Origin: Escherichia coli
GTDB taxonomy: Bacteria > Pseudomonadota > Gammaproteobacteria > Enterobacterales > Enterobacteriaceae
Assembly (NCBI RefSeq): GCF_030013205.1
Contig: NZ_CP122648.1
Length of the DNA stretch: 64,000 bases
Direction: 5' to 3' (one strand)
A program made the position numbers. Positions 3,001 to 9,000 of this stretch are shown one piece after another. Each line of letters starts with the position of its first letter. Positions within the stretch are counted from its first letter, which is position 1.

Positions 3001-6000
3001 AGCCATGTGCTTATTCAGATGCTCGCCATGCCACGCAGCGACCTGCGGGTTATTACCCGCCAGGGCGATATTGGCATGGAAGAGTTGCGCCAGGCGCTGA
3101 CGGTGGAGAACTACACAACTGCCCGTTCTGCGGACAGCTACCCGGCATTTTCCCCGATGCTGGTTGAGTGGCTGAAAGAGGGCTGGCTGCTGGCGTCGGC
3201 TGAGATGCAGCACAGCGAATTGCGTGGCGGCGTGTTGCTGCTGGCCCTGCTGCATTCGCCGCTGCGTTATATACCGCCTGCTGCCGCCCGGTTGTTGACC
3301 GGCATTAACCGTGACCGTCTGCAACAGGACTTTGTACAGTGGACACAGGAGTCGGCGGAATCAGTCGTGCCGGATGCAGACGGTAAAGTCGCAGGCACAC
3401 TGACGGACGCTGCTGACACCCTGCTTGCCCGCTACGCCAAAAACATGACCGCAGACGCCCGTAACGGCAGGCTTGACCCGGTACTGTGCCGCGACCACGA
3501 AATCGACCTGATGATCGACATTCTCTGCCGCCGCCGCAAGAACAACCCGGTGGTGGTGGGCGAAGCAGGCGTGGGTAAAAGTGCCTTAATCGAAGGGCTG
3601 GCGCTGCGCATCGTGGCAGGCCAGGTGCCGGACAAACTGAAAAACACCGATATCATGACCCTTGACCTAGGCGCATTGCAGGCCGGGGCGTCGGTGAAGG
3701 GCGAATTCGAAAAACGCTTCAAGGGGCTGATGGCGGAGGTCATTTCCTCTCCGGTGCCGGTCATTCTGTTTATTGACGAAGCACATACCCTGATTGGCGC
3801 GGGCAACCAGCAGGGCGGGCTGGATATCTCCAACCTGCTCAAACCGGCGCTGGCGCGCGGCGAACTGAAAACCATCGCCGCCACCACCTGGAGCGAATAC
3901 AAAAAATACTTCGAGAAAGATGCCGCCCTGTCGCGCCGCTTCCAGCTGGTGAAGGTCAGCGAACCCAACGCCGCCGAAGCCACCATTATTCTGCGTGGTC
4001 TGTCGGCGGTCTATGAACAGTCTCACGGCGTGCTGATTGATGATGACGCCTTGCAGGCCGCAGCAACGCTGAGCGAACGTTATCTCTCCGGGCGTCAGTT
4101 GCCGGACAAAGCCATTGATGTGCTGGATACCGCCTGCGCCCGCGTCGCCATTAACCTTTCCTCGCCGCCGAAGCAAATCTCGGCGCTGACCACTCTGAGC
4201 CACCAGCAGGAGGCGGAAATTCGCCAGCTTGAGCGCGAGCTTCGCATCGGGCTGCGTACCAACACCTCACGGATGACCGAGGTGCTGGTGCAGTACGATG
4301 AAACGCTGACGGCGCTGGATGAACTGGAAGCGGCCTGGCATCAGCAGCAGGCGCTGGTCCGGGAGATTATCGCGCTGCGCCAGCAGTTGCTGGGCGTGGC
4401 AGAAGACGATGCGGCGTCGTTGCCGGACGCAGATGCCGCGGAGGATACGCCGCCAGAGTCAGAATCAGAATCAGAGTCAGAGTCAGAGTCAGAGTCAGAG
4501 TCAGAGTCAGAGTCAGAGTCAGAACAGGATAATACCGGTGCCGTACCGGCTGATGAGGCCGACAGAGAACAGCCGGAAGAGACCGCTGAAACAGTTTCCC
4601 CGGTACAGCGGCTGGCCCAGCTCACTGCCGAACTGGACGCCCTGCATAACGACCGGTTGCTGGTCTCCCCGCACGTCGATAAAAAACAGATTGCGGCGGT
4701 GATTGCCGAATGGACCGGCGTGCCGCTCAACCGCCTGTCGCAGAATGAAATGTCGGTCATCACCGACCTGCCGAAATGGCTGGGCGACACCATCAAAGGC
4801 CAGGACCTGGCGATTGCCAGCCTGCATAAGCATCTACTGACCGCACGCGCCGACCTGCGTCTTCCGGGACGCCCGCTCGGTGCGTTCCTGCTGGCTGGCC
4901 CCAGCGGTGTGGGTAAAACCGAAACCGTCCTGCAACTGGCAGAGCTGCTCTACGGCGGTCGCCAGTACCTGACCACCATCAATATGTCCGAATTCCAGGA
5001 GAAACACACCGTCTCGCGGCTGATTGGTTCGCCTCCGGGCTACGTTGGCTACGGTGAAGGCGGCGTACTGACCGAAGCGATTCGCCAGAAACCCTACTCG
5101 GTAGTACTGCTCGATGAAGTGGAAAAAGCGCACCCGGATGTGCTCAACCTGTTCTACCAGTCGTTCGATAAGGGCGAAATGGCAGACGGTGAAGGCCGCC
5201 TGATTGACTGCAAAAATATCGTCTTCTTCCTGACGTCCAACCTCGGCTACCAGGTAATAGTCGAGCACGCCGATGACCCGGAAACCATGCAGGAAGAACT
5301 GTATCCGGTGCTGGCCGACTTCTTCAAACCTGCCCTGGCCGGAAAGCCTGCAGCAGCAGCAGGCCTCGACACATTGGAATGAAGCACTCAAAACCCGCGC
5401 ACAGAGTAGCCCGCAGTTGCGTGGCTGGTTGCAGACCCGTCAGGACTTACATGCTTTTGCAGATCTCGTGATGCGGCGCGAGAAAGAGGGACTAACCCTT
5501 TCCTATATCAAAAATGTCATCTGGCAGGCGGAGCGGGGACTGGGGCAGGAAACACCCGTTGAGTCTCTGTTGACGCAGTACCAGGATGCCCGTGCGCAGA
5601 AGCAGAATATAGATGCGCTGGAAAAACAAATTAATGAGCGACTCGAAGGCGTGTTAATCCGCTGGCTGCTGCTGAAGAATAACGTCATGCCAGAGGCGGC
5701 AACCGGGACCACGGCCGAAAAATAATTATTTAATTAAAGGAGATTATCATGGCAAATATGAGTTATTTATCTTTGAGTGGAGAGACACAAGGGCTGATTT
5801 CAGCAGGTTGCTCAACGCTTGATTCTGTCGGAAACAAAGCACAGCCAGAACATAAAGATCAGATCATGGTTTATGCGTTAATGCATTCCATCTCAAGAAG
5901 TCAAAATGTCAATCATCATGAATTAATTATCACCAAACCGGTTGATAAATCCTCACCATTGCTGGCAAAAGCACTTAGTGACAATGAAAAAATGGTAACA

Positions 6001-9000
6001 TGTGAATTTATACTCTACCGAACCAGTAAAGCGGGTATTTACCAGCCTTATTATAAAATAAACCTGTCAAAAGCCCGAATATCAAGTATTGATTTTGTCA
6101 CACCGCATGCTGTCCTGGAAAAAGAACTGGAGCCACAGGAGAGAATTGCCTTTATTTATGAAGATATTTCCTGGGAGCATACGTTAGCCGGTACGAATGC
6201 AATGAGTAAATGGCAGGATCGTGTACAGTAATTTACTGTAATAACATAATAAATTACTATTGCGGAGAGATATAATGGCTGGTTTAAGGAATAATAACAA
6301 CACACAGAATGCACAGTGGGCTGATTATGTGGGTGACATTCTTCGGGGGGCTCAACCGATAAACCAGCTAGTACCTCAGCACCCTTATCTTAACGACGTC
6401 CCACTCATTGATGAATTAAGGCGTCAGAACACTCATCATGTTATTCTCTTGACACTTGATGTTGCAAAAAAAATACTCAGCTCAATAACATCATTTGATT
6501 ACATTCATTTTATCACTACACATCCTTCAGGTATAAAAGATACACTCGCTTGGTTAGTTAACGCGGGTAAATTAATGACTGAGTTTGATGGAAATGGGAA
6601 AATTATATTTAACTTTAATACCTTAAAGTATACAAAAGCAAGTTACTTTGAAATACTTGGAGAGAAATATATAAAAATTACAACATCCAGCCCCTGGCTT
6701 TTAGAAAAGCTCGGTAAATATATTTTCTCTTCACGAGCGCCTCAAGTTCTGGAACTCGCTATTGGCTGGCGAGGAGCTTTATCTGAATCAATAAAAGGAG
6801 TTAAGTTCTGTATCTGGTTTTCAGTAGCCTGGAGAACCATAGAATTTATTATGAGTTCAGAGCGAGATCTGGTTAATTTTCTTGGTGATTTTTCAATGGA
6901 TGTGGCCAAAGCAGTGATTGCAGGCGGTGTTGCAACTGCTATTGGAAGCCTGGCTTCTTTTGCCTGTCTTAGTTTTGGCCTTCCAGTAATTCTTGTAGGA
7001 GGAGCAATTTTACTTACAGGGATAGTGTGTACAGTTGTTTTAAATGAAATCGATGCTCAATACCATTTATCAGAAAAATTAAAAGATGCAATTAGAGATG
7101 GACTAAAACGGCAACAGGAACTTGATAAATGGAAAAGGGAAAACATGACTCCATTTATGTATGTTCTTAACACTCCCCCCGTGATATGAGGATTAACTAT
7201 GCGTTTACATGTTAAATTGAAAGAGTTTTTTTCGATGTTTTTTATAGCCATGTTATTTTTCCCTGCATTCAATGCTTCTTTATTTTTTACCGGAATTAAA
7301 CCTCTATATTCAATAATAAAAGGCTCCACGGAAATATTTTATGATTGGAGAATGTTGATTCTATGCTTCGGTTTCATATCGTTTTCCTTGTTAAATATTC
7401 ATGTAATTTTACTAACAATAATAAAATCATTCTTAATAAAAAAAACAAAGGTAATCAATTTCGCCACAGACATAACAATACAGCTAACTCTTATATTTTT
7501 ACTAATAGCTATCGTAATAGCACCTTTAATAGCTCCTTTTGTCACAGGATATGTCAATGCTAATTATCACCCCTGCGGTAATAACACGGGGATTTTCCCA
7601 GGAGCAATCTATATTAAAAATGGCATAAAATGTAATAATGAACATATTTCTCGCAAGGAAGATTAAGCAGTTAAATAATTAAATATTCTAAAACAAACAG
7701 TTTTTAACACCGGATTCCATGTCCTTTCTTGCACTGTCTTTGTCAGGAACAATTTCTTATGCAAAGAATTTTGTATTATTGCCGCCAGAAATTCCTGGCG
7801 GCAGATATAATTTATTATTGATAGCGGTTAACCAAATCTTTTACCATCGCTTTATAGGTCTTTTGCTTAAGTTGTATGATTTGCTGCTCTGTCATATCAG
7901 TCGTACTGGCTTCATTCTTGCCGGGAAATGGTGGAAGCACTTTATATTCATAATTCACCGGCGACCAGGCAGCCCACTCACCTGTAGCTACATCCACCAG
8001 CGTGAATCGCACCAGATAGCGCAGTGAGATTGTGTTAGTCAGTTTTTCATTTTTATAATCGGACCATACTGTTGATTTCAGTGCAGTGTCATATTTTCCT
8101 GTCTGCAACGTATCCTGGTAAACAATAATCGCTTTCTGATGGCCTTTTGCCGCCACAAAACGTAATGCCTGCATCCAGTTCATATTTTCAGCACTGGCAA
8201 CATCCTCGTTCTCATTTTTATCTTTGTTTTTGTTACAAGTCAGAGGCTTTTGTCTGTCCGGGATACCAGAGAATGTGGAAACAGTATAATATTTTCGCAT
8301 CTCCTCCTGCATAATGGTTTCCGGTGCGCGGTTGCCGGATTGAACAAGTATTACAGGTGAATTAAGGGGAACGCGGAACTCATCTCCATCAAGCGCAGCT
8401 TGAATATCCTCCTCGGATACGGCTAGTGTGGTTTCATTACCAAATAAGTCTTTGTCTGTTAGTTGCTGCGGAGCGTTTTTATTAAAATTACTTTGTGTGG
8501 TTTGAGCTTTTTTCTTCTTTTCATCAATAAGAGATTCAGAGACACATCCTGCAAGCAGCGAGAATAATACATATATACAACAAACCTTTTTTGAATTCAA
8601 AATCGGACACTCCCTCGTCTGTCATAATCATGGTAATGTTTAGCTAACGATTTTTAATTATATACTCCACTTGAATCAGAACAAACAAAAATAATATTAA
8701 ATATTAATTCATTAAATCAATAGAATAATAAAAATTATAACATGGAAATATATTTAAATTGAATGATTCGCTGGTATTATTAAATATTAATGAATGGTCA
8801 ATCATATATAATTACCACATTTACAGCATAACAAAATAATTGAACGAAGAAATTGTGGGGTTTAAATAAAATAAATATCCTCCGGCATAGCCGGAGGTTT
8901 TTCAAATGCGCCTATAAGGCTCTCTTACCAGCCGCGCCCTAACAGGCGCACACGATCTGACATTTGCATCCAACTTCGTTACTTACGGCCCGTAAACGGG

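Follow-up and report, generated by a model that had tools for sequence, protein, structure and literature searches.

A candidate Hcp-linked Tme/Tmi effector-immunity cassette at the variable end of the aspV-associated type VI secretion cluster of Escherichia coli

The described systems closest to the locus reported here are the effector/immunity pairs Tme1/Tmi1 and Tme2/Tmi2 of Vibrio parahaemolyticus. Both effectors are secreted in a type VI secretion system (T6SS)-dependent manner and are toxic from the periplasm, with loss of membrane potential and entry of propidium iodide but no lysis; cytoplasmic Tme1 is harmless, cytoplasmic Tme2 merely slows growth, and each toxin is neutralised only by its own Tmi protein (PMC7046647). 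The Tme domain lies at the C terminus and comprises an almost invariant DxxK motif, a predicted transmembrane (TM) helix and a flanking Asp, and DUF1240 (PF06836) and DUF1240-like multi-TM proteins, named Tmi, have been proposed as the corresponding immunity family (PMC7046647). Here we analyzed a stretch of 64,000 nucleotides of Escherichia coli DNA (assembly GCF_030013205.1, contig NZ_CP122648.1; hereafter the window), in which an hcp gene is followed by a gene encoding a 304-amino-acid (aa) protein and by ykfM. We regard it as highly probable that these three genes constitute a Tme/Tmi-family cassette of antibacterial effector and immunity protein that is linked to Hcp and located at the variable end of the aspV-associated T6SS cluster.

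The hcp-tme-ykfM cassette and its family

All three genes lie on the plus strand. The hcp gene (5749-6231) encodes a TssD tube protein of 160 aa (TIGR03344, E=1e-60) and closes the series of core genes in the aspV-linked T6SS cluster. After a spacing of 43 bp it is followed by the 304-aa gene (6275-7189), here called tme, whose stop codon is separated by 9 bp from ykfM (7199-7666), a gene for a 155-aa protein annotated as "protein YkfM" by PGAP. The ATG of tme at 6275 is preceded by a ribosome-binding site, GGAGAG, although the longest open reading frame (ORF) opens earlier, at a TTG at 6260, and the start of ykfM is preceded by GAGGA. An earlier note made from the DNA sequence had described three tightly packed, AT-rich genes behind a GC-rich T6SS core, and this description was borne out, as the GC content drops from approximately 0.60 in the upstream core genes to 0.30-0.40 over hcp, tme and ykfM. 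The Hcp protein, which is WP_000002621.1 in annotated loci 99.8-100% identical to the window, is spanned end to end by TIGR03344 and has no C-terminal toxin extension. The dN/dS ratios were 0.09-0.20 for hcp, 0.17-0.21 for tme, and 0.17-0.35 for tme and tmi (ykfM) together; the tme/tmi family is under purifying selection.

The family membership of the 304-aa protein could be traced by accession. Positions 5300-8700 of the window are 100% identical to the DNA of strain W13-16, in which the product of this gene carries the accession WP_000908071.1, and Fridman et al. 2020 (Nat Commun 11:1085; PMC7046647) include this protein among the Tme proteins of their Supplementary Data 5. The entry gives a Tme domain at residues 122-277 (E=1.3e-37 in the published RPS-BLAST table), the Hcp WP_000002621.1 upstream at 43 bp, and a 155-aa protein with three TM helices downstream at 9 bp (PMC7046647). 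The Tme domain profile was built on residues 161-310 of Tme1, and we took the E. coli match from the published table. Downstream proteins of 155 or 159 aa are tabulated there as presumed immunity proteins (Tmi), and the main text of the paper does not discuss E. coli (PMC7046647). Because WP_000908071.1 is listed by accession, the family assignment has been public since 2020 in a supplementary table, and the earlier assumption that the pair had no assigned toxin/immunity function does not hold. What is gained here is therefore annotation and experiment design rather than discovery; beyond the published table, we add a re-annotation of yafU and ykfM of K-12, the probable stranding of the cassette here, and a candidate N-terminal loading module.

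Our own searches placed the protein in a larger family. Pfam and NCBIfam contained no family for the 304-aa or the 155-aa protein, and a sequence profile search of the PDB with the 304-aa protein gave no match. A word-indexed search retrieved only 19 close clusters, all from E. coli, Salmonella and Rahnella; by contrast, an exhaustive HMMER search with the alignment of these 19 clusters returned 702 representatives at E<=1e-3, whose common core corresponds approximately to residues 45/120-280 of the E. coli protein. Among 15 long homologues, Pfam identified PAAR in 6, DUF4280 in one and LysM in one, with PAAR also detected by NCBIfam, and two homologues carried an N terminus resembling that of the Vibrio MIX effector VPA1263. 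Delivery domains placed ahead of a shared core are the behaviour of a polymorphic T6SS toxin domain. In addition, hcp is adjacent to the toxin gene in the window and at five of the six relatives' loci examined; the locus of P0021 has no adjacent hcp.

The Tme toxin domain, delimited as in Fridman et al. and coinciding with the conserved core of the 702 representatives, maps to 6638-7105 (plus strand). It contains the DxxK motif D209-V-A-K212 (6899-6910, plus strand), recognized by its conservation among homologues, and a hydrophobic helical hairpin at residues ~210-259, followed by the conserved flanking Asp260 (together 6902-7054, plus strand), which was delimited from hydropathy and predicted helices. 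Among 122 diverse homologues, D209 is conserved in 92%, K212 in 98% and D260 in 98% of the sequences, and D209 and K212 are invariant in A1. The C-terminal hydrophobic hairpin reported in the earlier note is indeed present: the stretch VAKAVIAGG...CTVVL spans residues 210-256, and Kyte-Doolittle means over 19 residues reach 2.71. An AlphaFold2 (AF2) model computed with the 122-sequence alignment had a mean predicted local distance difference test (pLDDT) score of 75.9 and a predicted template modelling (pTM) score of 0.49, with pLDDT values of 80-94 over residues 165-295, whereas the model obtained with a 10-sequence alignment was unusable (pLDDT 45.7). The former model shows a beta-hairpin at residues 120-137 and then four long helices, the middle two of which (199-234 and 238-263) form the hydrophobic hairpin. 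The earlier note had also suggested a comparison with colicin pore domains. No fold match was found between the AF2 model and solved pore-forming domains, nor any match to a colicin sequence family, and since the model is unlike any solved pore-forming toxin, the idea of a colicin-type pore domain is not supported.

For YkfM, a hydrophobicity scan revealed three hydrophobic segments (~10-33, 51-81 and 85-121), in agreement with the Phobius prediction of i12-32o52-75i96-119o in the published table (PMC7046647). Of the three to four TM helices originally proposed for this protein, three were thus recovered and the fourth was not. As a direct Pfam match was lacking, the link to DUF1240 was made through the Salmonella orthologue, a PF06836 protein encoded directly 3' of the Salmonella Tme, to which YkfM is 50% identical (E=6e-48). 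An hhalign comparison of YkfM with DUF1240 proteins gave a probability of 99.9% and E=8.6e-34, and DUF1240 matches were found directly downstream of Tme homologues in Salmonella, Rahnella and three metagenomic/genomic loci. YkfM and the DUF1240 proteins further share a C-terminal Y-x-x-C...YVK...C motif with two conserved cysteines. This Cys-pair tail is predicted to face the periplasm on the basis of the published Phobius topology, and our guess is that the pair stabilizes a periplasmic knob through a disulfide.

Collectively, the published Tme listing, the conserved motif, the architectures of the homologues and the DUF1240 link support the arrangement envisaged earlier, that of an Hcp, a membrane-inserting toxin and a polytopic immunity protein. 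In the mechanism that we propose, Tme would be made in the cytoplasm of the attacker, loaded on the T6SS, probably via the Hcp encoded 43 bp upstream and via its own first ~45 residues, and injected into the periplasm of an adjacent Gram-negative cell. There, the C-terminal domain with its DxxK motif, hairpin and flanking Asp would enter the inner membrane from the periplasmic side, and the insertion would collapse the membrane potential and raise permeability without lysis. YkfM, as a putative inner-membrane protein of the DUF1240/Tmi type with three TM helices, would shield sister cells by neutralizing only its cognate Tme. For the E. coli pair, we infer secretion, periplasmic toxicity, depolarization, entry of propidium iodide and cognate immunity by homology with the Vibrio pairs. 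The tight linkage of hcp and tme, both here and at five of the six relatives' loci, makes Hcp the probable carrier of Tme.

A variable cargo slot, a conserved N terminus and the K-12 counterparts

Comparison of relatives' loci indicated that the site between hcp and yafT can hold different genes. In the O157:H7 strain SS52 (L003, 4028-5377), the hcp-yafT slot contains a small ORF with a frameshift, followed by genes for a hypothetical protein of 198 aa and for a DUF1311 protein, of which the latter two are probably another effector/immunity pair; the presence of a different pair in O157:H7 marks the site as a swappable cargo slot. In a further locus (L011), the same slot is occupied by a Tme and a Tmi that are only 38% and 28% identical, respectively, to those of the window, and P0020 occupies this vasL-hcp-[ ]-yafT slot with an Hcp of 74% and a Tmi of 28% identity. 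The Salmonella gene order is tssM-vasL-hcp-tme, followed by a PF06836 protein, with yafT further downstream.

The N terminus of Tme behaves differently from the rest of the protein. Residues 1-45 of Tme are 73-84% identical to those of P0016, P0018, P0019 and P0020, whereas identity over residues 46-304 is only 19-36%. This segment (6275-6409, plus strand) carries the motif W15..DY.G..LRG..P.NQL.PQH.Y38, and homologues with PAAR or MIX-effector-like N termini can be aligned only from about residue 45 on. Since residues 1-45 are far better conserved than the toxin, they suggest a candidate loading tag for the T6SS or Hcp. A search with the first 68 residues recovered only truncated fragments of the same gene and no non-Tme toxin behind the module. 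In Tme1, secretion requires the first 60 residues, which constitute its RIX domain and also suffice for secretion, and toxicity does not depend on them; RIX is an Arg-rich N-terminal domain of ~55 residues reported only in Vibrionaceae and Moritellaceae. Of the first 50 residues of the E. coli protein, 4 are Arg, and the motif of this N terminus is unlike that of RIX. In view of the low Arg content, the different motif and the restricted range of RIX, it is unlikely that the E. coli Tme is a RIX-domain effector, and the first ~45 residues point to a distinct, candidate loading module.

Several loci contained fragments of the cassette. In Salmonella enterica (L004, 6001-9010), we observed, at the equivalent chromosomal position, an array in which Tme and DUF1240 are followed by ORFs of 169 aa and 43 aa and by another, divergent DUF1240. 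Of Tme, the 169-aa ORF, a stunted second copy, retains nothing but the conserved N-terminal module, with 59% identity across residues 1-68, and the whole looks like an orphan array of toxin stubs and immunity genes. In addition, P0028 is an in-frame deletion chimera in which residues 1-99 of Tme are joined to the last ~28 residues of YkfM, and P0102 is an in-frame deletion chimera of a Tme-like N terminus and a DUF1240-like TM region. Both represent further decay of the cassette, in strains other than the present one.

The earlier note had proposed that yafU and ykfM of K-12 are remnants of the same module, and alignment confirmed this. The K-12 BW25113 locus aligns by blastn to positions 6833-8796 of the window with 93% identity, starting abruptly at Tme codon 187. 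The start of homology adjoins an ISAs1 transposase remnant, and the alignment continues through an intact 159-aa ykfM and yafT. What K-12 retains of tme, the yafU pseudogene, corresponds to Tme residues 187-304 (6833-7189, plus strand); it is annotated as "hypothetical protein, missing N-terminus", and apart from a few substitutions its translation equals the C-terminal 118 residues of the Tme encoded in the window. The 112-aa YafU of the K-12 annotation would presumably correspond to Met193-Ile304. Because K-12 homology starts at codon 187 and the translation matches the C terminus of Tme, yafU is the C-terminal stump of tme, and the K-12 ykfM is the intact downstream gene, with a putative immunity function. 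The accession of K-12 YkfM, WP_001236645.1, occurs 207 times as a downstream protein in the Tme table (PMC7046647), and literature searches found no paper that links ykfM or yafU to T6SS. Two long-standing orphans of K-12 thereby gain concrete candidate roles, ykfM as an orphan T6SS immunity gene and yafU as the stump of a membrane-disrupting toxin.

The cassette proved to be very common. Among 5,426 complete genomes of E. coli, megablast detected the 3.4-kb region at >=80% coverage in 2,542; an essentially full-length tme was present in 2561 and ykfM (>=80% of its length) in 2997. Approximately 430 genomes, K-12 included, thus retain ykfM but no intact tme, and the excess of ykfM over tme fits orphan immunity. 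From here we put forward, tentatively, a two-part proposal that we believe has somewhat more against it than for it. The module WxDYxGxxLRGxxPxNQLxPxHxY may be an undescribed loading tag specific for the cluster-terminal Hcp, an analogue of RIX, MIX or PAAR that stays nearly constant while toxin/immunity alleles swap behind it, and the K-12 YkfM may be a working orphan immunity protein that protects E. coli lacking a T6SS from the approximately half of the species that carries the toxin.

The broken T6SS cluster and alternative explanations

The T6SS cluster next to the cassette is not complete in the window. Compared with strain 5283 (L007), it has suffered a deletion of 7,041 bp that removed the 3' end of tssH, vasI, tssA, tssM and most of vasL. 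The junction lies at 5335-5337 and affects the ORFs at 2773-5382 and 5273-5725; positions 1-5337 of the window correspond to 7623-12959 of L007, and positions 5335-8875 to 20001-23542. The same lesion is present in strain W13-16, where the affected genes are flagged as pseudogenes and tagH also has an internal stop. The T6SS apparatus encoded in this cluster is almost certainly non-functional, and with tssA and tssM lost, the cassette is probably stranded and could not be delivered from this cluster, although its three ORFs are intact. As a separate observation, the remaining tssH sequence contains a perfect-looking CAGAGT hexanucleotide repeat of 11.7 copies (4454-4523), which encodes (Ser-Glu)n in the TssH/ClpV linker and could be prone to slippage.

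This state of the cluster bears directly on what the cassette does at present. We see an even chance that here, and in K-12-like genomes, it is a stranded remnant whose sole selected function is YkfM-mediated immunity against Tme-firing E. coli, while the toxin gene decays. The deletion beside the cassette points in this direction, as do the internal stop in tagH of W13-16, which shares the deletion, the ~430 genomes that retain ykfM without an intact tme, and the decay products found in databases, such as the P0028 fusion and truncated N-terminal fragments. However, none of hcp, tme and ykfM is disrupted here and their ribosome-binding sites are good, a dN/dS of 0.17 between alleles reveals purifying selection on tme, a second T6SS located outside the 64-kb window could use Hcp and Tme, and the deletion may be recent. 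A different question is whether the target is bacterial at all. Reviews tie T6SS2, the aspV-linked system, mainly to pathogenesis, the aspV-linked T6SS of enterohaemorrhagic E. coli delivers KatN into macrophages, and a hairpin that inserts into membranes could, in principle, attack bilayers of any kind. Still, close linkage to an immunity gene of the multi-TM DUF1240 type is the hallmark of effectors directed against bacteria, bacteria are killed by Tme1 and Tme2 and protected by the cognate Tmi proteins, and strains devoid of a T6SS retain orphan immunity genes, so that we hold it improbable that the pair is anti-eukaryotic or virulence cargo acting on host membranes instead of an antibacterial system. 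A widespread antibacterial cargo at the end of a system usually discussed in terms of virulence argues for an additional role in competition of E. coli with E. coli. Least of all do we expect the 304-aa and 155-aa proteins to be ordinary inner-membrane housekeeping or stress proteins that lie beside the T6SS by chance, even though YkfM has been reported as "lethality-reducing" and a published K-12 ykfM::Tn5 mutant was more easily killed by nalidixic acid, mitomycin C and peroxide. As the toxin is truncated in K-12, the Tn5 phenotype cannot reflect the native role of the pair. Moreover, the toxin domain occurs in homologues behind PAAR, DUF4280 and MIX-effector-like N termini, hcp is the neighbour at all but the P0021 locus among the six examined, and accessory cargo would be expected to be AT-rich and patchily distributed in the manner of a cassette, as these genes are.

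Several points nevertheless weigh against the assignment as an active antibacterial effector/immunity cassette. Besides the broken T6SS that adjoins it in this genome, literature searches found no experimental work on the E. coli tme/ykfM pair, and the idea of Hcp as the carrier is drawn from adjacency only, with P0021 lacking a neighbouring hcp. The AF2 model is moderate overall and poor in the N-terminal half. The E. coli/Salmonella subclade departs from the consensus ahead of the hairpin, with T137 in place of Gly (91%), L143 in place of Arg (90%), A155 in place of Asn (80%) and S195 in place of Asp (83%), and because these positions are conserved, its activity could be altered; the same-slot relatives P0016-P0020 retain the consensus "ITGYAGLRRILKGTRY..NN" motif. 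Finally, the Pfam DUF1240 model misses YkfM even at E<=10 and gave no hit among 7 close relatives; the Pfam scan was DUF1240-negative even for P0177, which bears a precomputed PF06836 flag.

Further features of the region complete its description. The yafT gene (7815-8600, minus strand) lies 3' of ykfM and is convergent with it, and a GC-rich hairpin between the two (7779-7804, plus strand) is a possible terminator by consensus match only; in the promoter/terminator scan, the site counts did not exceed those of shuffled sequence. Beyond yafT and a transposase gene of the IS200 family follow tRNA-Asp (aspV; 9641-9717), dnaQ and rnhA, and this succession of yafT, tRNA-Asp, dnaQ and rnhA identifies the locus as the aspV-linked T6SS island of E. 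coli. The IS200/IS605-family element (NF033573, E=2.6e-43; 8876-9578, with tnpA at 8979-9488 on the minus strand) separates yafT from aspV and is missing from the otherwise nearly identical loci of strains W13-16 and 5283. We also noted that yafT is annotated as frameshifted in E. coli E2863 (L008, 3041-3779) and that its labels differ widely among genomes, from "lipoprotein YafT" to "aminopeptidase" and "hypothetical protein".

Comparison with known T6SS effectors

In its predicted mode of action, the E. coli Tme resembles VasX, Tse4, Ssp6/Ssp4, Tke5/BTH_I2691 and the colicin pore domains, which are likewise inner-membrane depolarizers that act from the periplasm and are countered by membrane immunity proteins, but it has no sequence-family match to them and no fold match to any solved pore-forming domain. 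The authors of the Tme study similarly call the Tme family distinct from other T6SS membrane-targeting effectors (PMC7046647). XmtU/XmtV from the hcp2B operon of avian pathogenic E. coli is also a T6SS2-associated antibacterial pair of E. coli that needs an Hcp (PMC5874247). It was dismissed as the same pair, since XmtU combines PAAR with peptidase_C39 in an hcp2B-vgrG2-DUF2169 operon and is unrelated in sequence, position and predicted activity (PMC5874247).

Closer in organization are the Hcp-dependent cargo effectors and Hcp-ET proteins of E. coli (Ma et al. 2017, via PMC6730261), in which a toxin is likewise coupled to hcp and followed by an immunity gene. In contrast to Hcp-ET, however, the Hcp of the window is a plain 160-aa protein, and a stop codon and the 43-bp gap part it from the toxin polypeptide. 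The PAAR-Tme and MIX-Tme fusions (for example P0070, P0086, P0105 and P0140) have the toxin domain in common with the E. coli protein from about its residue 45; they are specialized or MIX-type spike-carried effectors, whereas the E. coli Tme has neither PAAR nor MIX and is presumably a cargo effector.

The Vibrio Tme effectors, in turn, are encoded by orphan genes and depend on an N-terminal RIX domain for loading, whereas the E. coli Tme lies directly behind the hcp of its cluster and has an N-terminal module that is not rich in Arg. What it shares with Tme1/Tmi1 and Tme2/Tmi2 of V. parahaemolyticus is a Tme domain at the C terminus, marked by DxxK, a flanking Asp and a hydrophobic helix or hairpin, accompanied by no other recognizable domain, a multi-TM DUF1240-like gene directly downstream, and linkage to a T6SS.

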